Part shown: positions 13,046 to 32,500 of the stretch, in pieces
Position numbering within the stretch: position 1 is the stretch's first letter
Layout: each line of letters begins with the position of its first letter
Assembly: GCF_032062105.1 (NCBI RefSeq)
Contig: NW_026928671.1
Coordinates: forward strand, 124,001 to 188,000
Source of the DNA: Saccostrea cucullata
Lineage: Eukaryota
Direction of reading: 5' to 3'
Length of the DNA: 64,000 bases
Notes under the pieces: generated by a model
What the model saw: only the letters and a program-made list of their open reading frames with translations
Databases searched by the model: none
What the model was told of the DNA's origin: nothing
Translations under genes and position numbers: made by a program

Positions 13046-16000
13046 TTATGTGGAAAATGGTTGATATTCTTTTGACCTTTTAATTCCCTCCTTCAGAAAA
13101 ACATTGTAGTAATAGGCATGGGAATCTTCAAATCTGCAACAAAAATGGACAATGTTGATAATGGGTGGTGAGTATTATTTTTACACAGTTCTAAAAAATG
13201 CATCGGGCATGAAAGGAGCTGATTTCTGTATTGCATGCTGCAGGAATTTCATGTAGTGGTACTCTTGTGGACCATTAAATCTGCCAAGAAAAAAAAAATC
13301 AGAATTCAGAATTAGTCCTTTTAAGCAAACATATTGAATATTCATGCACTAAAAAAGTTTTGATTTTGCCCTTTCTTCTTTCAATTAAGTTTATTATATT
13401 AAGAAAGCCCAAATAACGTTTCCTATTGCTTCATGTTTTCTTATCAAAGTATGTATGTTAGAAACAGGTAAAAACATTTTCTTATAAAAGTATGTTAGAA
13501 AAACAGGCAAAACATTATATTATCAAAATATGTTAAAAACAGGCCAAAAAAGGAGATAACTATTAATAAACAACACACCAACATTTTCAAAGGGTCTGAA
13601 GACAGTTTTACCAAAGCCACAAGTGACGGAATGTTAGAGGCATGCACAATATTAAAATAAGCAGTATATACTCAGACCTTAGAGAACACAGAGATTATTA
13701 ACACAAAAGATAACAAATTGATAGATCATTTATCTGAAAATGTTAAGCTGTTTATCAAAATTGATTCAGTTAATAAGTATACTTTTTTATCAACTGAATA
13801 TTTTAGGTTTATGGTTAATTACACTGCAGATAATCATCTCTTAGTTTTAAAAATAGAGATTGTGCTAAAAGGGAGATAAAAGGAAGCATTGGCATGTTTC
13901 TAGACTGTGAATAATGAAATCAAAGTTTGCTGTTAACTATATTCAAATATCATATTTGGTACCCCCCCCCCCCTTTCTTTTCACATATAACAACCCATCT
14001 GTTCCAAAATTGATTCATAAAAGGATAATGAGCATGTCCATGCATTTTGTTCTGACAGGGGCTATGTCACTGACACTGAAGTGCATTGATGGCCAAAAAT
14101 GTTAATGATGTTAAGTTCACAACAGTGAGACAATGTGGTAAGCAAAAACAAGACCTGTGAGCATTAGATAAGTACCAGTAAAACTTTTCAAACACTTCCA
14201 AGTGTTGAAAAAGACTAAACTATATTCATCGCTGCCATACATACCCATCTGCTTTGAATTTTTCCATATCTTGTTTTAATCGGGGGCACATCGAGTCCCC
14301 CTGAGGTCCTCCTAGCCTACTAGAAGCTGTAATTCTCTTGGGTTTAGGATTGACTTTTTCGATGAATTCCCTGTAAAAAGTTTACCTTATGATAGAAGTT
14401 CCCAAATACGTAAATGGGTAATATAATTTTACATTCTTAAGCACATAAATACCAGTAATGCAAATCCCTATCTATTCTTGATTACTAGTTTATAATCAAC
14501 CTGTTGGAAGTGTGTTTAATTTTTTTTGTTTCACAAATGAAACCCCCTTCCCCTCTTCCCTTCCAAATGTTCAATGTTTCAACTCCAGGCAAGTCATCTC
14601 CATTGTCATGTTTTTCACTTCCTGAGGAATAATACTCTGACTTATTCATAATATATTTAACATCATGCTAAAAACTACTTTATTGTGTTGGTAACTTGTG
14701 TTAGTAGCCTCTGCTTAGAAGATTTAAACCGATATACTAAATTACAGAAATAATCAAACAATATGATTCATGCATGCAAAACGTTGGGATCATTATAAGG
14801 GAAACCCATGGCCCATGCAGACAAATTCATATCCGAAACATGCATATAATTCTAAATACCCAACCAAAGATAAAATGCTTGTACAATTTGTTCTACATAA
14901 TTCCAATGGCTGCTAAATCCTGATATCTATGGAAAAACTTGAGAATATGATAAAATTTTGGACAGTTAGCTAAAATCTTAAGGAGTTTTTTATTATTTTC
15001 TGTTTAGAGATGTAATCATAAGTATTGCTTTAAATGCTCAATAAATGAATTGTCTGCTTAAATGAATTTGTAAAAATTAGTAAAACATGCAAAGCAAATT
15101 ATATCATGTCTACACTTTACACTTTCTTCAATAAATTGTTAATATTTTTTAAAAATCATTTAAGTGGTGAATCTGTTCCAAATTCCTGAAATCTAAAACA
15201 AAACCATTAATGCTTCTCTTTCCCATTTCTTCAGCTCCTTTCAGATATACATTGTATATATGTAAATACTGTATGTAGTTGATGTAACATGTAAAATGTT
15301 CATCCCAAGAAAATCACTGTGAAACAATGCCACGAGTTGCTGAGGTTAACACAATGGTTTTCTTGAGTGAAAATTTTCAATGCTACCCACAACTGTATGC
15401 AATAAATGTTTTATTTTTCTATTTGCTAAATCAGAACTGTATACATACCAAGACCATATTTTTTGTTATACCAATCATTGTGAAGTTAGATTTTCTCTTG
15501 CTATATAAAGTCACACTGGAGGGCATGATTCTTCTCAAAGATGGCAACAATATTGTTGTTTAATGTTTTTTTTTCTTTTTTGACCAATCAGTATTTGGAA
15601 TGAATTTGAATAATTTGCATAAGATCAATATATAATAAAAGGCAATAAAACATTTTCCATGTTTGCATCACTTGAAAAAAAAAAAACTTTATAAAATAAC
15701 ATAACATTTATATCAGCATCATTTCAATCCCAAGCAACAGTCAAATTGCTAAAAATTGAAGAAAAATTAGCTGGAATGTAAAATATTTAAATATTTTAAA
15801 AAAGTGTAATAGGATCTGGGTGTATTGGCCAAATAGCTAAGTGGTAAAACATCTGTATATTTAAGGAATGGTTCAAGGTTTGTGTCTTAGTCTGGCCAAA
15901 TCTGTTACATTTGAAACCATTAGTTTTGAGGATCAAGTATCAGTTTTATAAATGCTTTTCAGACAGAAATCTTCAAGGATACAGGAAATAAAGGACTCTT

Positions 16001-19000
16001 TCATGAACAAGTGTCATTTATTTCCTATTTCAGTACAGGAGTGTTTTTTCCAAGGACATCTAGTCAACAGTACAATCATCAATCTCTTAATCCTACAACT
16101 TGACTTGACAGTTTTGTGTAAGTGTAATGTGTTGTTCTGTTTTAAACCATAAATCTTAATCATATTTTTCAAATAGATACCATAGTTTTATCTTATTAGC
16201 ATTCATGTTTTTTTTTCTTAACTTCTTTATTTGCTTGGGGGATGTTCAGCAATCCATATATATATATATATATTTTCAAAGTTAACCTCATCTCACTCTG
16301 ATAAATTTTAATATGTAAAACTAACAGAATCTCGTCAAGGATTGTCCTATTTTATTCAGTACATGTGTATTTATTTTTCAACATGTGGAATATCCCTTCC
16401 ACTTACCCAAAAGTCCCAGCCAGAGTACTGAACAGGGAGGGCTCCGTTTCACCGTCTGCCCCCTCATCCATGAACTCATTGGCATTGACCTTGTGGAGAA
16501 TGGTGCCATTAGGCAAGGCCACCATCATCATGACTGGGAACTTGTAGTTCTCCAGGAAGTGGGCGGCTACCTTGCTGTACTCAGGCTGATGAGGATCTTT
16601 CTCAAGTTCCTGGAAAAAATAGACCATAAATAGTGAAACTTTCTGCATTAAAATGGATAAGTTTGATTATATTTTATTTAAATGATGTGTTTGTCAGCAA
16701 ATGTAGAAACTGTTTAACTGTAAAGCACTTCGCAGGGTTGTTCCTTAGAATTAAAATTGAAGGAGACATTAAAATAAAAGGTGTGTCTGGGGTTTTTACC
16801 ATATCAAGAGGCTGGAGGGGAATAGCAGGATAACCAAGGGATTATGTCATCATTGGCCAGGAATTAAGGACATCTATGACTTAGTATGTATTTCACATAA
16901 TAAGTGATTTGGAATGACTACAAGAAGAATATGAAGTTAAACATGAAAATTTAAAATACTTTGATTACATTATGACACAATGAATTCTATAGGACTGGGT
17001 AAGAACATGTATCTCTTTATTAATGGTCTATAAAATGAGACACATCTATTAGTATAATTGTCACATTTACCTTCAAATCAGCGACGAGTGACCAGCTGCT
17101 GACAAAGCTCTCGTTGAGGAGAGCCAGGATGGGCGTACTCTCGAGGGCTGTTTCCCTCAGAGTACGCCCGGAACCTCAGCAACTCTGATCGTCCAGCGCA
17201 CCCCAAAGTAAGATGTGGTGAACCAGACGATTCTCTTTTTTGGCTATTTCAAATGCATCTGTGAAGTTGTGGTACACAATCTGCAATGTATAAACAGGAA
17301 CTGAGCATCTGTGGTTTGTGCAATGCAACTATTTTATTCACACATGCTCCTGAATGATCCTGATGTATGCATTTGGAGAGCAAATTTAAGGAATTAATAT
17401 AAACTATCAAAAATATAAATTTTACCTTCTTGAAAGGATAAAATGCTATTTCTAGATTCCTCTCAGCATCGTACATGGATATTTCCTTTGTCCATTTCAT
17501 ATTTTGGACAGTCTTAGCCATGTTTTTATCCTCGGGCAGTTCTTTCCCTTGATCCTCCTTGGGGACTTTCTTCGATGGACTAGAAATTTTAATCTCCATC
17601 TGAGGCATGAAGCCAATATCCACCTCCATGTTCTCATCTGTTTCTGGACCATTCAACCACTCCATGTCTGAAATATGTTATGTAAGATGTTTGAAGTCAA
17701 ACTGAGAAATCCCTGCCTTGATTCCTTTTTATAAAATTGAGCTACAATTTTCATTTCATTTAGTATTTTAAAAAATCTTAATCTTGATTGTTTTTACACT
17801 AAATAAATGATTGCACAACAATATTGATCATTTTAAAACGAATTAAATGATTGCACAAGAATTCTATCTATAAATACTTTACATGTACTTTTTACTGTCA
17901 AAATTTATCAGAGAAGAAAAAGCACTTGTTTGTTTACTGTTAAAACAGGTGTTACTCTTTTGCTGACTTGACATAATCAGTTACTTACCAATATTGAGAC
18001 GTTTGTCTGTGGGAACATACATGTGAAAATGCTGGATGTGTGAGCCATCTTGAGATATTATTAGATTGCCCTTGAATTGAGCTGGTGTTAACCAAAATGG
18101 GTAATATGGAGCCTCATTCAGCTGATACTCTGCATGGATTCTATAATAAATAACAAAAAGATATGTTTCATTTTATAATGAGGTATGTAAAATAAAGAGT
18201 TTAAATGTCTGGCAAAGAGGAGTGGGAAAGTTGGTTTTATAACTGGGATAAAACTTTAAATAAAAACAAATTCCAGGAAAAATCTCAACCTACACTGAAA
18301 GCATATAAAGGACATTTAATTAAACACAAATGTCAACATAATTTATAATTAGGTATGTAAAATAAAGAGTTTAAATGTCTGGCGAAGAAGAGTGGGAAAG
18401 TAGGTTATATAACTTGGATAAAACTTTAAATAAAAACAAATTCCAGGTAAAATCTCAGCCCACGCTTAAAGCATATAAAGGACATTTACCTAAACACAAT
18501 GTCCACATATTTGTCATTGAATGCCCTCACAGTGGCTTTGGCTCCTTGAGGAGCAAACCTGGTTCTGAGGAACGGACGAGGATGGAACATTGCTAGGAGT
18601 CTATGAATGAGGACTAATCTGTCCTCAACCTTAGGGGGATTATAGCGATTGCTGGATTTCATCTGCATGTCAAATTTGGCAAAGATCCCTTCATCCATAG
18701 TATAGATGTCGTAAACTTCTCCAACTTGACTAAGCAGTGCTTGGTCACTTGGGAAAAAGGCTTCCTTAAAGTGTCGAGCACCAAAATTATTCCACTCTTG
18801 GGTCAAAGTTGTCCACTTCTTCAACCCGATCAGGGAATCCATATTATCAGACAGGAACTAAAAAAGTCAAAATCATAAAGAAAATCTTAATTTCTATTGT
18901 TTTATGAATTTTACATTTTAATATTTTCTTTTTCTTGACCTCAGTCTTGTAAACATTTTGAAATTTAACATGCATATGGTATAAATGAGCTAATTTTAAT

Positions 19001-20144
19001 TTCGTTTTAGTTTCATACTTCAATTTAGACAAAATCAATCCCTGCACCATGCATCAAGCTGTTACATTTCAAATGGATTATCCCTTTTAGTCATAAAATT
19101 CAGCATCCATGATATATGCACAATGAAATGAAATTTTAACTGCCTGTTTGAGATAAATTTTATGATGTGCAACAGCTTTCAGAAGAAACAGTAACTTTTT
19201 TACATAATGTGATCTGTGCAATGCTGAAAATTATTGATTTTAAGACTTTATTGCCCAATCCAACATCATTTTTTTTTTTTTAGTGTCAGCAGCACTGAAT
19301 ACGTTATCATGTAATACTTACCGATTCATTGAAATCTTTTGTCATGGTTTCTAACAGAAGAGGTTGAAACCTGGCTCTGGCCGTCAAAACTTCATCGTCT
19401 TCATCGATCAGCTGTGTGTACTCTGGTACTGCTGTTATCTGTATAAATATTTAAAAAAAAATATCCTGGAGCAATTTTGAACATGTCATTTTCAGAAAAA
19501 AAGAATTATTAAAATCATATTTTGAAGAATTCGTAATTGCTGGCATTTAGATCATAATACCTTTGCAGGAAATAGTCAATATTAAATTTAATATATGTGG
19601 TAAATATATTATGCTACAATATTGCTCTCCTTACATTTACACCATCTCCTAGCAGCCTGTAGTACATAGCCTCATATTCCTCCAGAGACAGCTTTCCGTC
19701 CATATCTCGGTCATACTGACGGAAAAAGTCCACCCCTGCCTCACCAATGACACTTTTAAGTCCCGACTCAGGATCCCATGGGGCAATGCCATAGTAATAC
19801 TTCCACACCCTGTCTCCAACATACCCTCCCAAGGCAATAAAGCCAATGGCTAAAATCACCAAGACAGGATAACATATCCACTTGGGTATGGCAAATATGA
19901 TCCTGTTGGCAGGAATGTAGATAACATCAGGTTGTTGGTATGGCACTTGTTGCGGCAGAGGTTGCTGTTGCGGTGGTGCTTGTGACCCTTGTGCACTTGG
20001 CGTGTCTTGTCCTGTTTGCTCTCTATTTTTTGCTTGCTCTGCTTTAGGTTTTTGTCGACCTTGTTTTCGATTTCTTAATTCCGTCTCCCCGTCGCCCCCT
20101 GGGTCGGGGCCAGAGGGCTTTGCCGAATCCTCCTTCTTCGGCAT
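13046..20144 (-). CDS. SELENON: Selenoprotein N (ER membrane, EF-hand, SCUG motif); in-frame TGA = selenocysteine at 17176-17178
   Basis: Exons 19635-20144, 19322-19438, 18490-18857, 17989-18140, 17426-17667, 17071-17280 and 16407-16609, optional 14245-14370, then last exon 13181-13280 or 13046-13133; all phases are consistent. Motifs: N-terminal TM helix, EF-hand [53 protein letters not shown](U)[36 protein letters not shown], and C-terminal FED...FLKEG. Confidence 0.96.
17131..17169 (-). promoter_or_regulatory. Selenocysteine redefinition element (SRE) hairpin in SELENON coding sequence
   Basis: Six nt after the UGA (spacer GGTTCC) the sequence reads GGGCGTACTCT-GAGGG-AAACAG-CCCTC-G-AGAGTACGCCC. 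This is a 16-bp stem with one bulged G and a 6-nt loop, at the same position as the known SEPN1 SRE. Confidence 0.9.
18175..18509. repeat. ~170-bp tandem duplication spanning the SELENON exon 3 donor site
   Basis: Two similar copies start at 18175 and 18345 (ATAATxAGGTATGTAAAATAAAGAGTTTAAATGTCTGGC...GCATATAAAGGACATTTA..TAAACACAA.TGTC.ACATA). Confidence 0.9.
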
Positions 20145-20520
20145 TTCCCCTTCCAGCTAACGTGGCTACCTAGTCATGGAAGTAGTCACGTATACACTGA
20201 TAATAAAACTTCCTGATATAAATAGGACTACTGCGAAATACTACGACCTCGTTGCTTGCCTAAACAAGTCGATCCGGAACTCCTCGTGGGCGTGTGGTAG
20301 GCCCTTTAAATCTGAGAAAAAAAGATTTCTGTAATACAAGCTAACAAAGTAAATTATGACACGAATATAAAGCTTATTAAGAATAATGATGATTGATAAA
20401 TATTTAAATGCATGAAATGAGTGCATGTTATATAAATCTTTAAATAATGAAAATGAAAGTACACTTCATTTCTTTCGTAATCCCTCGGAACACTTTACTT
20501 TCGCAATCGCAGAAGTTGAC
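20145..20520. promoter_or_regulatory. Bidirectional promoter SELENON/AP5M1
   Basis: Head-to-head start codons are only 376 nt apart. The interval contains ETS-like cores (GGAAGT, ACTTCCTG, CCGGAA) and a partial E-box (GTCACGT). Confidence 0.7.
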
Positions 20521-23500
20521 ATGAGCATTCGAGCATTATGGATTGTTCCAATAGTACGGCATACTAATACTGATTTATTGCAAAACAGCATTTTATTAAG
20601 GTATTGCAAAATTCTTTATGTGTTATCTGCTCAAACTGCCATAAGAATCTTTTCAGGAGGAAAAAAAGGGGCGTTAACCATAGGCCATTCCAGAGACTTG
20701 TGTCTCTTGCCATTCCATATTCAATACAGACAAACAGACGAAATAGAACTAATAAATTTTTAGAGGCCCCTTTCTTAGTTAACTTTTACTCTTTCAAGTC
20801 AATAAGGAACTCCTAAAGAATTTTATTGCCGTATATATTCGCCTATAAGTCGGTCCGCCTATAAGTCGGTTGTATTTTTTTAGCTTATATGGCAAGAATT
20901 TGCCATTGACCCGCTTATAAGTCGGTTCAATTTTTGCAAGAATGAGATGACAATTTCTAGTAAATGCTCTGATGTTTTAACCTGATTTTAATGAATATTT
21001 TGAGAAATGAAGTCTATATTTATTTTTAAATTTAAAGAAAAGAATAATGCCCTCTTAAGATTAAAAAAAATAAAATTATAAACACATGTATAGTATTATA
21101 ATACATAAATGATTTAATATATGCAGGCTTTGTTCAGCGATAGCTGTTGGAAATGTTTGTAGAATACTACGATTTGCCATCCAGAAAAATATTAGTCTTT
21201 TAATGACTCGCCTATAGGTTGGACGTAGACTCTTTGACTAAATTTGAACTCCCAAAATACCGACTTATAGGCGAGTATATACTGTATAGGGGGAAAATAA
21301 CTCGCGGTGTTAATATTCGCTACATTCACGGTGTTGATAAATCCGTGAATTCAAGAAACAGTGAATAAATTTTCAATAATCTCCATGTTTTATTTGGAAA
21401 TTTGAGAATATATAGACTACGGTCGGTTTATGTACGTGCAGTTCATGGCCATTTCAGTAATTACGAGTAGTATTTGTCATTTAATTATTTTAATTATCAA
21501 GCTTTACTTTAATTCCAATTGGCAGATCATAAAATGTATTTGTTAAAAAGCTGTTTTAATAGCCAACGCTACATGTTTCCTCAATCAAAACACGTGGACC
21601 ATGGGTTTTGATTACCCGTGCGAAACTAATGTTACCACGTGTATTTGTTACCTGCATTATCATGCATATTAATTTTTATCGAAAATTTGTTTTTAAAATC
21701 ATTCAAATGAATATCGAACTTACTGAAGATGTGGAAGGATATTATTTCGATCGTCGGACTACATTAATACATTTATTACTGTCCAGTGGTTTTCGCCGCG
21801 TTGTATTGAAGATCTTAGAGTGTACATGAACTCATCGTAATAGCATAATATAGGAAAGTCATTTGCGTTTACAGTCAACGACGTTTGAAAACTGTACTTG
21901 TTTTAATTAATTAAGTCAATTACATGTATTTTTTATGTCTAACAATTTTATATTAACCAACCCCGTTGTTCGTGAAATAAAGACACTACGCTGATTAATG
22001 TCGTTTAGATGTAGCTATGGTATGGATTAAATGTATACAGACAAGGGAGGTAACTTTTATTATACATAAAAATTCGGCGAATTCAAGAAACCGCAATCGT
22101 GTCAGATGAGAGAAAAACTTGAAAATTACAACCCGTGAAATTAATCCCCTGTACAGTACTGTAAACTGTACGTTATAAACAATGCTAAATCAAGATGTAA
22201 CTACTGAACTAATTCAGGGACCTGTATACTAATAAAGTATAGTTAGTTTATAGGCCCCTGGTTAATCTCTCTACTTTTTAAAACATTTTTTTAGACACTA
22301 TCCTCTCATTGAGAAGAAAGCTAAGCTAGTGAATGGAGAAGACTATGTTTCATTGCCAAACCCTACAGAATTTTCTAATGCTCTTCTATTCGAGCTAGGA
22401 TACAGAGATGAAGAAAAGGTATTTATTATACCCATGCTGCACTATGAAATTACTTGTCATTAAACACAGCATTGAAATATTCAAAGTGGATTTAAGTTTG
22501 AAGAAATTATCATAATTTTTGCAAATGTGATAATCTGTTTGAAGAGTTATTCCCCTTATGGGACTCATTTCAGGCAAAATTCATTCAAGATCTCTTGAAA
22601 TTCTTAAATTATCTTACTGCTGAGCAATTACAATACATATTCAGATAAAATAGAAAGCCTAGAAATAAAGATTATATATCTACTTTGTAGTTCATACAGT
22701 CACGAGACACGTGTCAGAGGGTGGACAGGAAGCCAGTGTTTGAGGTGACCACATCAACAGGAACAATATGGCCGCTGGTGGTGGTGGAACAGGTATAATG
22801 CAAACAATTTGTTGTTCTTAAAGAAGAATATTTGACTGTCACATAGAATATTTAACAATGTATCATCATTTTCCCTATATGGATAATGTGCAGCTATATT
22901 ACCTTGGCTATAGAAATGCATTCCATCAAAACCATGAATCTTCACAATATATAATTTTGTCTTGTTTGGATGCCAGGATATGAGATATCAGTATTGATCA
23001 TACAAATACTGATACACCTTATAATAAGTCAAAACTGATTATCCTTAGCACTTTGCAATAAGAATGTTTAACTGTGTGTTGAATCACTGTCTTTATTACC
23101 ATTTATCAGAGGGGGCTTCTCTTTTGCTGTCTTCCATTGGTCCAAGAAAACCTGTCAACCAGACCAAATCTCATACAGATGTAAGTTATGCAACTGTTAT
23201 CATTTTATATAAGGCTGTTTAAAATTAAAACTACGTTTAACGTCACCCGCGCGCGTAGGTTTATGAGAAATTCGTCTTTGAAAAAAACAAACAATTCGGA
23301 ATTCTGTATGTCTGTTCCGGTTTGGTTCTACAATTAGCAACTGAATTCTGCTTCCCGTAGTGACAGAAAATGTGCTTTGCCGAGTTGGTGTCTTAATTAT
23401 TGAAGAAAACTAGTGAATTAAAGAGTTTGGGATCATAAATGTAAGTAAGAAAAAGACGATTTTATGATTAAGTTAATGACAAAGTCAAGTTTGCTGAGTG

Positions 23501-26500
23501 TTTTGTCAGTCTTCGAATCACAGGTTCAAACTGACAGTGACAGACTCTCAGTTCGTGATTCTATTGGCTGAAATTTTCATTGTATTTTGGAGAGAATCGA
23601 AAAACTTTTTTACCGAGTGGAAAGTGTGTCAAAAACCAAGATCTATATACAGTGAAAAGCATCATTCAAATCTTATTTGATATGTTTCATATTCAAAATA
23701 TTTCTGTAAAAATCGAAAGGAACAGTAATGAGTAAAGTAATTGATTTCTTCATAATTCATGTACCTACAAAAAGCTACAATTTTTGGAAAAGATAATACT
23801 TGTCGTAACCATTTGGCAGGGAGAAGGTTACCGAAGATAGGGCCTTTCAAGTGAAGGAGAGTAAGGAAAGAAGTTGAAGTATTCCAAGACGTGAAGAATC
23901 CTGTCCTTAGTGTGGAATTCAAGGTATTAAAAATAATCTAACAGCTATCATTATGGTCCAGATATTAGTATTCACACTTTCAAAATTTAATACTGGTAGA
24001 TTTAGTACTAAGAAAAAATACGGCATAATTCAATTTGAGATATTTCAACATGAACAGTTTTAAATATTGTCATCAATAATTTTAATTGTAGATATTGATC
24101 AACTATTCCCATAAGAAGAAGCATTTTCCTCCAGGGTACCATGGATGTGTGGCAATATAAATCCAAAGGACAATTGAGGCCTAGTTAAAAGTCACTTTCC
24201 TGCACATTCAGTCTTAGAATACATTGTTTGCTAACAATAGGACTCAAACTGATTTACAAACTAAGAAAAAAATCTGCTATGGAAATTAATCTTAGGTGTC
24301 ATATCAATTAAATGCTCTTTGTTACTTAATTGTAATGTTTTTAATGTAGTGAATAGGTTAGTTTGAATAAATTCACAATTGTTTGAAAATTTTGTTTGTT
24401 TATTTTTTTCCTCCCTCCCTCGTAGGTTTTGAACTTTAGATGTGACGTTAAACGTAGAATTAACTTTAAACAGCCTAATATTATAAATATTTCAGAAATG
24501 TATCATGCTATAGACTGACATTGTCTTTCACAGACCTGGAGTTTCTCTGGGGTTTTCTTTACTCTGTGGATTGGCAGATTTCCTCCGACAATGCCCTCCC
24601 AATGAGGTAACATTTTTACTTTTTCAGATAAAGAATTTTCCAAAGATACAGTCACATTTGAATATTTGCATATCCACTGCTCTCTCCCACTGTGAACATG
24701 TATCCATCAAATGCGTTTACATGACTATAAACGCAACTGCTTTTGCTATGAGTGCAATTGCTCTAACTCACTCGTGTAGAACGAGGTCTACTACACTTAT
24801 GTACTGTGTTGAGAAGTATATATATGAAATGTTTCGTAAAAGGACTAAATATAAGTTTTTAATAATATTTTTTGGAAAAAAAGAATTCAGAACAATTTAA
24901 ATTTGCTGTTTTATATCTTTAAAAATTTAATTTTGGTCAATGTATTTAATTGTAATATAAAACTTTTTAAAAATTGAATAAAACTCCATATTTTTTTTTT
25001 TTTGTATCATGCATACTTGTACAAAGAACGATAACTCTTCACACTTGGGTAATAACATTCAGAAAGAGAATTTTTTAAACTAGTATATCTATTTCAAGAA
25101 AAAATAAATAGAAAACGTACCAAAAAATCACAGAAAAGCATACTGGAGTAATAATCATTATAAAAGCATTCTCATTTTTATCATAGTGTTAAATTATTGA
25201 TTTTTGTCAGAGGATTTCAATAACGTTGATTGATGACGTCACGACTGCATCAAAACAAAAATTAAGAGAATGGGATGATGGCGCTGCTTGTATCCTGATA
25301 ACTGTGTTTGAGAGGGAAATACTTTATAAATTGTGATTTATTAGAGAAAAGGGGTATTGATCAGGTGTACTGATTTTAAAGCTGTATGGTTTTCTTTACT
25401 GAAGACAGAAGAAGCTGCGTCCTTATGTAAGTCAGGATTTCCTCTGATATTCTTGACAACATCAAAGAATGCAAATATAAGTAATAAACAGCGATTATTT
25501 AGTGAACATGGCGTAATGAATAGCAATAGCTCTGCTGGCATATTTTCCATGATGCGCTAGCGCGCATCATGGAATATGCCAGCAGAGCAATTGCTATTCA
25601 TAACGCCATGTTCACTAAATAACGTTGTTTATTTCTTAAATAATTCAAAACAGTAAACTAATGAATGTTTATGAAAAATTACACATGTGAAGAAACTATC
25701 ATTTTGGTTGTACCAAATTTCAGATATAATTTCACAGTATTTTAAAAGAAATCTTCAAACCGGTGTAGCATAATATTTTGATACCGCGATATATTGAACC
25801 CGGGTTCGAAATATCGCATAATATTTTGAACCCGGGTTCACTTTTTCGCTGCGATATATTGAACCCCCTTATAAAATATTGAACCCCTACCTTTTTCATT
25901 AAAGAGGTAGGGGTTCAAAATATTATGGCCATAAAATATTGAGTCCCCCTGCCCATTTAATTTTACAGGGAGGGGGGTTCAAAATATTATGGCCATAAAA
26001 TATCGAATCCCCCTGTCCTTTAAATTGATGATGGAGGGGGTTCAAAATATTATGGCCATAAAATATTGAGTCCCCCTGCCCTTTTTAATTTTTGGAGGGA
26101 GGGGGTTCAAAATATTATGGCCATAAAATATTGAACCCCCTGCCCTTTTTAATTTTAGAGGGAGGGGGTTCAAAATATTATGGCCATAAAATATTGAACC
26201 CCCCTGCCCTTCTGATTTAAGAGGGAGGGGGGTTCAAAATATTATGGCCATAAAATATCGTGTCCCCCTACCCTTTTAATTGATGTGGGAGGGGGTTCAA
26301 AATATCATGGCCATAAAATATTGAGTCCCCCTGCCCTTTTAATTGATGTGGGAGGGGGTTCAAAATATTATGGCCATAAAATATCGAATCCCCCTGCCCT
26401 TTTTAATTTTAGAGGGAGGGGGTTCAAAATATTATGGCCATAAAATATTGAACCCCCTGCCCTTTTTTATTTTGAAGGGAGGGGGGTTCAAAATATTATG

Positions 26501-29500
26501 GCCATAAAATATTGAACCCCCCTGCCCTTCTGATTTAAGAGGGAGGGGGGTTCAAAATATTATGGCCATAAAATATGGAGTCCCCCTGCCCTTTAAATTG
26601 ATGTGGGAGGGGGTTCAAAATATGGCCATAAAATATTGAGTCCCCCTGCCCTTTTAATTGATGTGGGAGGGGGTTCAAAATATTATGGCCATAAAATATC
26701 GAATCCCCCTGCCCTTTTTAATTTTAGAGGGAGGGGGTTCAAAATATTATGGCCATAAAATATTGAACCCCCCTGCCCTTTTAAATTTTAGAGGGAGTGG
26801 GGTTCAAAATATTATGGCCATAAAATATCGAGTCCCCATGCCCTTATTAATTTTAAAGGGAGGGGGTTCAAAATATTATGGCCATAAAATATTGAACCCC
26901 CTGCCCTTTTTTATTTTGAAGGGAGGAGGGTTCAAAATATTATGGCCATAAAATATTGAACCCCCCTGCCCTTCTGATTTAAGAGGGAGGGGGGTTCAAA
27001 ATATTATGGCCATAAAATATGGAGTCCCCCTGCCCTTTAAATTGATGTGGGAGGGGGTTCAAAATATGGCCATAAAATATTGAGTCCCCCTGCCCTTTTA
27101 ATTGATGTGGGAGGGGGTTCAAAATATTATGGCCATAAAATATCGAGTCCCCTTACCCTTTAAATTTTACCGGGAGGGGGGTTCAAAATATTATGGCCAT
27201 AAAATATTGAACCCCCCTGCCCTTCTGATTTAAGAGGGAGGGGGGTTCAAAATATCTCCATCTCTTCTTGAGGATGACGTTGTAATGATTACTATTGCTT
27301 TAAAGACGTACAACACACTGGGGGAGATAACTCTTGCGATTTCAATTGAACGTTTGACGTGACGTCAAATTTAACGTCAAAAATAAAGCGTCAAAACGAC
27401 GAGTAAAACGATCCCGATGTATATCAATCATGAAAGAAAATTGGGATATGGGGCTGAGCTGTGATTGTGCGTACCATACTCAATCAATAAGTATTTTTTA
27501 ATTAACCCGATTAAACTCCGTAAAAAGCAAAACATAAAATACCACCCCTTAATGTTTATTTCATTTCATTTCATATACAATAAAGTGTATTTTTGATCAA
27601 AGCGCAGCATTTTTTTTTATTCTGAAAATTTTATTTTACATTGCCGAAATTCTCATTATGTACAATTGGCTATATAACATTCCGATTAATGGTCTTCATT
27701 ACAATTTGTGCATTTACGATATAAATATTGTTTTTCTTCTTTAATTAAATAAAACAATAAAAAAAAAAAGAACCTTTTTACAATGTAAAATCGATGATTG
27801 TTCTCAGACCCTTACTGATCAAAGAGGAACAACTCTGAAAATGTAGGAGATGTTTATTTTCCTCCCTTTATTCACGGTTTTCCACAGAATCAGATACATT
27901 TACAGCAAGACTTGATAAATCCGAGAATTGAATACTATAGACCTCATTATACACAATGTAAGTATAGAATTGAAAAGAATTGTTCACTTGTACTGAAATT
28001 ATCTGCATTTATGAATATCCTATTGCAGCAAATCGTTTGACTTTCTGTCAACAATGTCGGTTCGCATTTCCTCGAACCAAAACAAAACGTAGCCTATGAG
28101 ATTTTAAAAAATATCAAAGTGTGATTTGATATAAATTGAAATAGAGGAAGAGTTTAATGTTTGATATTTTGAAGTTAATGTGGACGAATACGGAATTTTC
28201 ATTTTAACTTTAGAAGTGACGACATTGAAAGAAATGCGTACAATATCATGAGGGGTGTACATCTATGCAAATGTCGATGTATCCCCACGGCCACATACTG
28301 TCTCGTTTGAAATAATGACATGAAAGAAACTACAATTATTCCATTTATATCAACGGAGAGTTGAATATACACCATTTTTTAATGAATAAAATTAAAGAAA
28401 TAAAATTAAAAATCAACATATTCAAGTTCAACAAAACTTGAATTCGTATCCAGGTTTCATGTGATATGGAACGCATAACGCATACATATATGGACTAAAC
28501 ACTAAAATCCTTCAGTAATTTTTTCCTGATACATATAAAAAGAGTAGTCAATATTTATTATGCATTCATGAATTTAAAAACTAATTCATACCTGCGGGAT
28601 TCAAATGACGAAATACCAGTATATTTGCACTGTAAACGACGTTTCGTCAAACGCTAATGGTCTGCGACGCAAAAAAGGAAGGGGTGGGGGTGATAGGGGT
28701 ATTCAAAAATTGCCTAAAAATCTACATTTAAATACGCTTTACATATGAGAACTTTTAAATTTGTAAGTTAATATATTTCTGAAGCAAAAGCAATATTCCA
28801 ATTTAATTTTTTTAATGTGTATTTGTAGATTCATATAACAAAGTGATCGACCCCCGTCTGAAATACGCGCGGGAACGTGATTTATTGAGAAAGGGGGAGG
28901 GGGTAATTTTCCGCTATTAAATCAAAACTGGTCGTACAAAAATTATACAAAAAATTATGAAGATTATTTTTACTACCAGCTACCTAAAGAAAGTTTTTTA
29001 CTAAAATTAAACGACAGGTTTTTTCACAAAAAAATTTTGAATTTGAAAAATACGCAATTTTCAAGGCTTAGATAATTCATAGTTTTTCAGTTTAAGGTCT
29101 TTAAAAATTATTTTAATGATATGTATATCAAAAAGATGACTATGTTATTGTGTTAAATGGTTAAAGGAATAAGCCAATGAAATTTGATATTTATATCTAA
29201 CCTGGCTTTTTTGAAAATCAAGGTTTAAGTAGTTCATTGATTAAAAATTTTCTCTCTTTGTAAACAACTAAAGGGGGGTAACTTTTGGAAGTTCCTGTCC
29301 AAAAACCACTCGAACGATTTTGTCCAAAATGTGCATATATGCAGTAGATATAGTCATGTACTAAATATACAAAAATAACGAAAATTAAACGACAGGAATT
29401 TTTTGGGGTAGGTGTGTTGTACATCCTTAATTAACTCTATTTAACTCTATTTAAACACCCGAATGTTGTATGTAAGTTAACCACCCCTCAATCTGGGCTA

Positions 29501-32500
29501 CCCTATCAGTGCACTCTCAAAACACTGTATTGCATAATATAGAAACCACAAAGGGGAAGCAACAAGACAGTGGGGATTGTTGACCTCCTATGTTGACCTC
29601 CTATGACACCTCCCTGTGTACACACAATACACAGGTGCTATACCCCTGTTACCTCCTCAATGGAGAGATACCTTTCTTATTCAATAGCATTGTTCCTTAA
29701 AATTTCCTTTATCAAATTGTTAATTACATGTATATACAATTAAATAAAAATGAATAAATACCTTATGAGATTCATCATGATACATGTGTATAATTATAGT
29801 TATTTGATGTAGAATATTGTGGGTTTAATAGTAAAAAAAAAAATTATTTCCTTTGTAACAATTGTACACTTCAATATTATGATTATATTATCCTACCCTC
29901 AATTCTTTAAGAATTGCATGTATATGAAAAAAAAGTTTTATAATAAAGATACCCTACTCTCAAGTAGTGGAAGTGTGTAAGTGGGAGAAGGATTTTAGAT
30001 TATTTGCAGGCATATTTTATCCTCACTCCCTTTTCAAAACAGTTCAATAGGGTGACTGAATAATATATGAGCCATAATATTTTAAGCCCCCATCCCTGTA
30101 AAATTAAATGGATGGGGGACTCGATATTTTATGGCCATAATATTTGGAACCCCCTCGCTGTAAAATTAAATGGGCAGGGGGACTCATTATTTTATGGCCA
30201 TAATATTTGGAACCCCCTCCCATTTAATTTTAAAGGGCAGGGGGACTCAATATTTTATGGCCATAATATTTTGAACCCCCTCCCTCTTAGATTTAAAGGG
30301 CAGGGGGACTCAATATTTTATGGCCATAATATTTTGAACCCCCTCCCTCATAAATTAAATGGACAGGGGGACTCGATATTTTATGGCCATAATATTTTGA
30401 ACCCCCTCCCTCATAAATTTAAATGGCAGGGGGACTCGATATTTTATGGCCATAATATTTTGAACCCTCTCCCTCTTAAATTTAAAGGGCAGGGGGACTC
30501 AATATTTTATGGCCATAATATTTTGAACCCCCCTCCCTGTAAAATTAAATCGGCAGGGGGACTCGATATTTTATGGCCATAATATTTTGAACCCCCTCCA
30601 TCTTAGATTTAAAGGGCAGGGGGACTCAATATTTTATGGCCATAATATTTTGAACCCCCCTCCCTGTAAAATTAAATGGGCAGGGGGACTCGATATTTTA
30701 TGGCCATAATATTTTGAACCCCCTCCCTCTTAAATTAAAAGGACAGGGGGGTTCAATATTTTATGGCCATAATATTTTGAACCCCCCTCCCTGTAAAATT
30801 AAATGGGCAGGGGGACTCGATATTTTATGGCCATAATATTTTGAACCCCCTCCCTCTTAAATTTAAAGGGCAGGGGGACTCAATATTTTATGGCCATAAT
30901 ATTTTGAACCCCCCTCCCTGTAAAATTAAATGGGCAGGGGGACTCGATATTTTATGGCCATAATATTTTGAACCCCCTCCCTCTTAAATTAAAAGGACAG
31001 GGGGGGTTCAATATTTTATGGCCATAATATTTTGAACCCCCTCCCTCATGAATTAAATGGACAGGGGACTCGATATTTTATGGCCATAATATTTTGAACC
31101 CCCTCCATCTTAAATTTAAAGGGCAGGGGGACTCAATATTTTATGGCCATAATATTTTGAACCCCCCTCCCTGTAAAATTAAATGGGCAGGGGGACTCGA
31201 TATTTTATGGCCATAATATTTTGAACCCCCTCCCTCTTAAATTTAAAGGGCAGGGGGACTCAATATTTTATGGCCATAATATTTTGAACCCCGGGTTCAA
31301 TATTTTATAGGGGGGTTCAATATTTCGCAGCGATATTTTGAACCCGGGTTCAAAATATCGCGGGGTTCAATATATTATATGACACCGGTAGTCCAATTTT
31401 TAAAAAAAAAAAAAAACATCTTAAAGAGCATTTTATAAATGCTCTTTTTATTCAATGAAGGATTCAATATCGAAACATACTTTTTAGGTTCCTCAAAAAA
31501 GTGCAGACATTCATCTCTACCTGAATACAGCAGTTCCTTTTGGGAGAATATCTGATGTTAACTGTGATACTGTGATGGCCAAAATGTACAATAAACCAAG
31601 CTACCTCCCTAGGGCACAGAAAGTAAGACTGCTTTGTACTCACAATCATTTGAATGTATGTAATCCATTTCTAACAGAGAGCTGTCTCCCTTCTCCATAT
31701 ATTAAATTGCTTTGGGTACATTCTTGAAATCAACTTTTTATGCTTTAAATAATTAAATGTTAAATATCTTCCGTATACATGTATCTTTTAACTTAATGCT
31801 TCTAATAAAAGTATAAGATAAATAATTTACAGAAATCATTGAAAAATATGTTTTTTTGTTTTAATATACCGGTACAATCATTCAGAATTCTTAACTTCAC
31901 CTGGAAAAAAATCTTGGGTATATAACAATAAATATCCTTTCTTTCTCATTATTGATGGTTTCTACATTAAAGTTTTGTAATGTATAAATAAACATGATGT
32001 TATGACATAAAGAATGATAAGTTAACATCAAGGAGAACATGAGATTTTTTTTAATTTGTTTTAGCAACCTTCTTGGAAGCCTGTGCTCCATAAAGGGAAG
32101 AATACTCTTTATCTAGCCCTCACAGAATATGTCAGGGCAGTGCAGGTATGTATCAAACTGGCACACTTGCTTTATCTTCACTGAGTGTATTAGAGTTTCA
32201 AGCATGTATCATACTGCTATTACAAATTGTTTCATGACATTGATAGACAAGTATGTATCATACTGCCGGAATACCAAACATTACTTTTTTAATTCACTGT
32301 TAAGTTGTTAATAATTAAAAAGTCTTTTAGAATGATAAAAAATAGTCCATTGTTGTGCATGTTTAGATTTTATTAAACCACTTTCAAATATAAAAATAAT
32401 TTATTTTTTTCAAGTTTAACAAAGAGAATATTGCTGACACTTTTGACCTCTATGGCACAGTGACCTGTAAATCAGAACTGGAGGTGGCGCTGTCAGACAT

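Follow-up and report, generated by a model that had tools for sequence, protein, structure and literature searches.

Foldback arms have been described mostly for transposons of the Mutator superfamily, with Galileo, a P element, as an exception (PMC4079207, in its account of foldback elements), and the arm repeats of Galileo bind the Galileo transposase (PMC3688188, binding results). Ginger1 transposons are known in other forms, among them the layout with Ulp1 and PHD of Ginger1-9_HM (Bao, Kapitonov and Jurka 2010, PMC2836005, element descriptions). Here we describe an element at positions 25764–31384 of a 64,000-nucleotide stretch of the oyster Saccostrea cucullata (contig NW_026928671.1, positions 124,001–188,000; the whole stretch is referred to as the window). 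It very probably belongs to a Ginger1-type cut-and-paste family with foldback arms, in which the window copy was likely placed at CCGG by the family transposase, and this transposase likely binds TTGAACCC in the ends and in the array units.

Results

Structure of the window copy

The window copy is 5621 bp long, starts with TGTAGC.., finishes with ..ATGACA and is flanked by CCGG on both sides (25760–25763 and 31385–31388), exactly matching the TGT..ACA ends and CCGG duplication that had been proposed from the letters of the window alone (the original prediction). The left terminal domain (25764–25909, minus strand) is the 3' end relative to the transposase gene and holds TTGAACCC motifs in both orientations as well as two internal CCGG sites; the right terminal domain (31270–31384, minus strand, reading TGTCAT.. 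inwards) is the 5' end relative to that gene and is conserved across the family. Between them lie a left arm of 21 quasi-palindromic units of 60–65 bp (25910–27255), cut short within a unit by an internal deletion, and a right arm (30049–31269) of 19 clean units and one degenerate unit, inverted with respect to the left arm. These counts agree with the roughly 21 and 20 units first proposed. The terminal domains themselves measure 115–146 bp, and the arrays lengthen the inverted arms to 1.3–1.5 kb.

Tandem Repeats Finder gave a period of 64 with 21.9 copies for the left arm and a period of 63 with 19.7 copies for the right, together with longer periods of 444 (left) and 127 (right). Identity between left-arm units peaked at lag 7 (0.909 versus 0.85–0.89 at the remaining lags), while right-arm units were more alike at even lags (0.92–0.94) than at odd lags (0.89), which bears out the proposed 7-unit higher-order duplication on the left and the alternation of two unit types on the right. 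Each terminal domain holds six occurrences of the motif AT(A/T)T(A/T)TTGAACCC, with both orientations represented, and this motif is what the array unit conserves, again as predicted. Since head-to-head motif pairs in tandem have two symmetry centres per unit by construction, the "double palindrome" and the alternating motif orientation are one fact. A two-unit stretch folded with z = -9.4, and none of 200 shuffles folded equally well.

Across 1075 units, a 22-bp core was conserved at 93–99% per position, whereas the spacer was variable. Unit spacing was 62–64 bp, about six helical turns, in 85% of 1184 spacings. The CCCT..AGGG hairpin of the spacer had been put forward as a feature in its own right; a selected hairpin was rejected, as among 560 units the compensatory pairs numbered five at one position, with none listed for the two remaining positions. 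Lengths of the C-run, middle and G-run did compensate for one another (variance 1.27 versus 2.72 when shuffled), but this signal was set aside because substitutions at the run edges produce the same effect.

The window copy retains the 5' arm together with some 0.7 kb of interior and then enters the 3' arm in the middle of a unit, the gene having been deleted. This deletion junction was not found at any other fetched locus, and no frame was found in the copy except one reading through an array. The fold-back structure of about 5.6 kb thus stands as proposed, but a nested transposon within it (27304–29426) had been missed. This insert is 2123 bp long with short inverted ends. It splits the family's 5' interior (minus strand) into a remnant (27256–27303) that ends in TTAA (27300–27303), the duplicated target, and a non-coding segment (29427–30048) that begins with the second TTAA (29427–29430) and is 98.8% identical to the coding copy described below. 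With the insert removed, 27256–27303 and 29431–30075 are contiguous in that coding copy at 98.8–100% identity, and the same contiguity, from 29431 onwards, was seen at five other loci.

In the oyster's own genome the insert had 1072 candidates, and 33 of the 40 scored were near full-length at 91–98% identity. It is flanked by TTAA on both sides here and in eight of nine other copies, its ends AG..CC fit RR..YY, and no long frame or transposase was found within 27304–29426. TTAA duplications and RR..YY ends define Kolobok and are shared by its non-autonomous elements (PMC9587614, definitions). Hence 2.1 kb of the interior is a separate, unrelated, non-autonomous Kolobok-like transposon, and the window copy is a non-coding, internally deleted Ginger1-type passenger that carries it.

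The family in the genome

When the two ends were searched for in the 1.17-Gb genome of the same species, 205 and 200 candidates were returned (40 scored for each). Exact end patterns occurred 75 times for the left end and 79 times for the right, with no matches to reversed-pattern controls. The family has roughly 100 copies. Within the fetched stretches, pairing of ends yielded 61 closed pairs and, after flank de-duplication, 57 closed copies, which range in length from 80 bp to 21.9 kb; these still include one doubtful pairing (L230) and two entries that are probably one locus (L042/L246). CCGG was present on both sides of 39 of the 57, in keeping with the expectation that other copies would share the duplication. 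Two more had an identical non-CCGG 4-mer on both sides, five read CAGG/CCGG, seven showed other one-sided differences, three were shifted by small indels and one was doubtful. Median divergence from the window copy was 2.5% for left ends and 1.1% for right ends (53 copies longer than 500 bp), and the family is young.

Some copies were unusual. At L188 (G000:C4632:48748-48840) and L213 (C8641:153531-153680) a right end starts exactly at the CCGG at positions 69–72 of the left terminal domain, so members of the family appear to have used their own terminal domain as a target. L216 (G000:C11875:365041-373979) comprises 8.9 kb between two inward-facing left ends with 28 and 21 units and flanks CAGG and CCGG, and L211 (G000:C6637:225701-225780), just 80 bp long, consists of nothing but the two tips, with CCGG on both sides.

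A coding copy and its affiliation

One copy, on contig G000:C14853, spans 21,875 bp between both family ends and has arms of 38 and 27 units. It contains a 726-codon frame with H2C2 (Pfam, 2e-21), rve (1e-12), D-D(35)E and GPY, followed by GT-AG exons with Ulp1-like and then PHD-like sequence; the downstream half of the YPYY motif lies at the start of the long exon. No reverse transcriptase frame was found between its ends. A scallop protein with rve and Ulp1 (P0002) aligns along all the transposase exons. That a copy with the same ends encodes such an integrase upholds the Ginger1 affinity originally proposed. By DNA search, four copies at at least 89% identity hold part of the gene, one of them with the whole long frame; the gene copies on C12786 and C2589 are broken. 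DNA contigs of sequencing run X1 cover the gene in 30 of 30 bins, and two RNA reads, from one of three runs, cross the last predicted intron. About 10 kb of stacked repeats occupy G000:C14853:46400-55900, upstream of the long exon, and include 156-, 147- and 168-bp arrays.

The best named match to the family integrase core is LOC133189855 of Saccostrea echinata (P0001), at 95% identity, and the scallop rve+Ulp1 proteins P0002–P0004 are 59–62% identical; compared as proteins, all four are annotated as uncharacterised. They group with the family integrase at a support of 0.97. In a FastTree phylogeny of 44 rows, built with no published Ginger1 reference, the family integrase falls in a 20-row clade (support 0.985) of Ulp1, OTU and PHD integrases lacking reverse transcriptase, together with two proteins that bear it.

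A second Ginger1 family was also observed (L144 and L145; G000:C8796 ~13500-25760 and C9400:23968-29512), with an intact 609-aa integrase + OTU frame, a YPYY-like start and ends TGTTG... A third integrase + OTU-like frame, of 629 aa, lies at G000:C10796:1062-2948 (L146).

Variation and possible role of the arrays

The family has the foldback architecture, that is, a terminal domain and tandem-array arms in which unit number varies by arm and by copy. The comparison of unit numbers across copies, suggested at the outset, gave 0–41 and 0–30 cores per contiguous arm for the two arms (median 9) at no fixed ratio; the longest arm, of 41 units, reaches ~2.6 kb. Among 29 long arms the best lag ranged from 1 to 10, so that higher-order periods vary by copy. 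Decay of inner units was about two to three times that of outer units (mismatches rising from 0.55 to 1.27 on the left and from 0.33 to 0.94 on the right). For 300 sampled units the nearest unit in another copy was sought; of the 190 without ties, 159 had it on the matching arm, with a base rate of 0.56 for the left. The proposal that the arms diverged independently holds to this extent and no further, as of 74 unit sequences found in more than one copy, 16 are present in left and right arms alike. Seven pairs of contigs representing the same locus had unit counts of 21/22, 10/9, 10/10, 34/31, 11/10, 8/8 and 16/14, and in five of them the counts differed by one to three in either direction.

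Arms-only copies with no interior made up 27 of the 57. In 21 of these the orientation switched in register, through a hybrid core in 11 and across one ordinary spacer in 10. A common deletion junction was present at three loci (L040, L050 and L060), which indicates that deleted forms have moved.

These patterns suggest how the arms could have formed. The unit may have been born by duplication of a head-to-head pair of terminal motifs, and the arms would then lengthen and shorten through slippage or unequal exchange, mostly within one arm. A unit so close to a palindrome lets the inverted arms align in direct orientation too, and exchange between the two arms would remove the interior and so produce arms-only copies. 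By analogy with Galileo, the array units, which share their motif with the ends, may supply extra binding sites for the transposase. A role of the element as a transposase sponge, put forward in the original prediction, is putative.

It is also possible, although we lean against it, that the arrays are neutral: a palindromic unit prone to slippage would have expanded into minisatellites that ride along with the element without aiding transposition. Unit numbers of 0–41 and 0–30 at no fixed ratio, the greater decay of inner units, array-free miniatures, a related OTU-type family with no array and the lack of compensatory pairing would all suit such an origin, yet what is conserved in the unit is the very motif repeated in both terminal domains, its 62–64 bp spacing is held in most cases, and Galileo provides a precedent for arm repeats with a role (PMC3688188, binding results).

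A one-sided tag at left flanks

Among 80 distinct left flanks, eight have CAGG next to the element. GA precedes seven of these eight, compared with five of 118 CCGG ends (p = 7e-8), an enrichment that a single point mutation does not explain. The resulting GACAGG was found at 7 of 80 left flanks and at none of 78 right flanks (Fisher p = 0.014), and three left flanks read ATGACAGG, which matches six bases of the right end. As the right end finishes in ..ATGACA, the tag corresponds to the right-end tail plus GG ahead of the left end. It was absent from all 11 empty paralogs examined at L037, which read TGCCGG or TACCGG at the tag position, and from all 11 at L041, where the paralogs have no such bases. 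Tagged copies fall in two different sub-lineages whose sisters show plain CCGG. A tag-like match at L289, a 25-bp fragment after TACAGG, was not counted.

The tag raises the alternative that the family moves by copy-out/paste-in through an end-joined circle, in which the point attacked by the right end lies 2 bp into the left flank and the tail and GG are left by integrations that went wrong. We regard this as unlikely. The one-sidedness of the tag, the GA excess, the three longer matches, the clean empty paralogs and the presence of the tag in two sub-lineages all point towards it; end-to-end junctions define copy-out/paste-in (PMC7780238, definitions), and the founding paper, where it treats excision, states that the mode of Ginger1 is unknown (PMC2836005). 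Yet none of the fetched loci showed a longer junction of right end to left end, some array units themselves contain GACAGG, a single donor flank could have supplied the tag, and the empty paralogs at L041 also lack the right-hand CCGG, which such a circle does not simply explain. The test was also post hoc and concerned eight ends. A fuller version, in which Ginger1, of all eukaryotic DNA transposons the nearest to retroviral integrases, leaves through a right-end/left-end junction with a 2-bp GG spacer in the manner of the bacterial elements IS3/IS30, GACAGG is a fossil of that junction and the phased palindromic arrays are a docking platform that pairs the ends, is a speculative one that we doubt.

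Empty sites and the origin of the flanks

An orthologous empty allele of the window site was recovered from runs X1 and X2 (one sample, S1) and from X11, a run that bears another organism label. In it the left flank passes straight to the right flank through one 4-mer with exact spacing, and nearby allele divergence is ~8%. The site had been expected to collapse to a single CCGG: a single 4-mer was indeed seen, but its letters were TCAG or TCTG, two changes from CCGG. The assembly itself held no empty haplotype of the window site, the left flank matching only itself over its length. With the empty allele and the low end divergence, the insertion is supported as recent, in line with the original prediction.

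Paralogous empty sites were available for 20 of the 57 copies. The closest empty paralogs of L038 (97%), L209 (92%), L045 and L252 carry a single CCGG, as do 6 of 11 paralogs of L203 and 10 of 11 of L037; others read CCAG/CTGG or were unaligned.

These sites bear on the idea that the CCGG flanks travel with the element as piggyBac-like overhangs instead of being copied from the target. The TCAG and TCTG of the window site, the locus L041 and the majority of non-CCGG cases, which differ on one side only, could be read in that way. Against it, two copies have identical non-CCGG 4-mers on both sides (CCAG, and CGGG, the latter also the commonest paralog 4-mer), CCGG is already present in the empty paralogs of L038, L209, L252 and L037, and CCGG sites within the ends show comparable decay (19–22% and 11% changed). 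On the family flanks and empty paralogs the idea was mostly rejected, and we consider it very unlikely.

Least probable of all is the suggestion, made in the original prediction, that the element seeds satellite DNA, its arrays having escaped as free-standing tracts: higher-order periods do differ between copies, and Tetris did so in Drosophila virilis (PMC4079207, satellite results), but 1206 of 1358 exact cores lie within the 113 stretches taken at element ends, the longest arm is ~2.6 kb, and by exact core count the assembly gives no sign of a free satellite, with the limit that the other 152 cores were not located and that a fragmented assembly can collapse satellites.

Neighbourhood of the element

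A near-perfect 85-bp palindrome (25519–25603) stands immediately left of the element, beside the end of a high-copy repeat. The element lies ~5.6 kb upstream of the first of these membrane-protein exons with an EF hand (Pfam; 19614–20156 and 18486–18857, minus strand), which presumably belong to a protein resembling selenoprotein N. Elsewhere in the window, a minus-strand fragment at 857–1489 with no Pfam match reads like part of the endonuclease region of a long interspersed nuclear element, and a low-complexity 738-codon frame at 44407–46623 (minus strand), also with no Pfam match, is probably a large exon.

Discussion

Several observations weigh against a Ginger1-type family whose arrays serve its transposase, in addition to the TCAG and TCTG of the empty allele. 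With regard to the gene, the single-exon Pfam matches to Ulp1 (E 0.003) and PHD (E 0.006) are both under the curated cut-offs, a first transposase exon with the YPYY start was not found by tblastn or motif scan, about 12 kb of other repeats lie upstream of the long exon, and the sole copy with a long intact frame has mismatched flanks (CCGG/CTGT). RNA depth on the gene was below 6 in one of three runs, ~1 in another and 0 in the third. With regard to the arrays, the core may be conserved because it was amplified recently and not because of selection, and the differences in unit count between contigs could be assembly errors. Three of the 57 copies are array-free, 80–180 bp long and flanked by matching 4-mers, so an element may manage without arrays, although no such copy was shown to have transposed while array-free. 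Finally, the OTU-type Ginger1 family lacks an array, its examined end carrying about five repeats of 31–33 bp.

If the family is of the kind that we favour, Ginger1 joins the superfamilies that evolved foldback arms. A cognate transposase gene is present, unlike in Tetris, so that binding to the arm repeats can be tested, and the palindromic units would make it simple to derive arms-only miniatures from a coding element. Ginger1 excision, called unknown in the relevant passage of the founding paper (PMC2836005), can be approached through 57 readable junction pairs and the one-sided tag; leaving the GACAGG tag aside, the family is neat but unremarkable among repeats.

No Ginger1 with array arms was found in the literature searched, and Repbase and Dfam, which lay outside that search, may already hold such families. 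The searchable text of PMC8268682, PMC12628747, PMC6431247, PMC10294476 and PMC12863088 likewise shows none. One oyster satellite-like cluster, CgiSat41 of Crassostrea gigas, is annotated as Ginger1; compared by description, its monomer is 1736 bp versus 63 bp here (PMC8268682, satellite descriptions).

Measured against Ginger1 as characterised in the element descriptions of PMC2836005, the oyster family shares TGTNR ends (TGTAG and TGTCA), a 4-bp CCGG duplication, introns, low copy number and non-autonomous derivatives, and, with Ginger1-9_HM, a Gypsy-like integrase with H2C2, DDE and GPY followed by C-terminal Ulp1 and PHD. It differs in that the terminal inverted repeats given there are 40–270 bp in elements of 2.6–7 kb, whereas here the arms are tandem arrays of 0–41 units that extend to 2.6 kb, and in that CCGT/ACGG flank pairs, 24% in hydra Ginger1, were absent among the 57 closed copies.

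In architecture the closest counterparts are Galileo (P; PMC3688188) and Tetris (putative Mutator; PMC4079207), which, in their structural descriptions, likewise combine a terminal domain with a variable tandem array whose unit shares an end motif, and have variable interiors. Tetris makes duplications of 8–10 bp, compared with the 4-bp CCGG here, and has given rise to a free satellite, where none was detected for the oyster family (PMC4079207, same sections). What sets the oyster family apart from both is that its units are quasi-palindromic, so that the arms match as inverted and as direct repeats alike.

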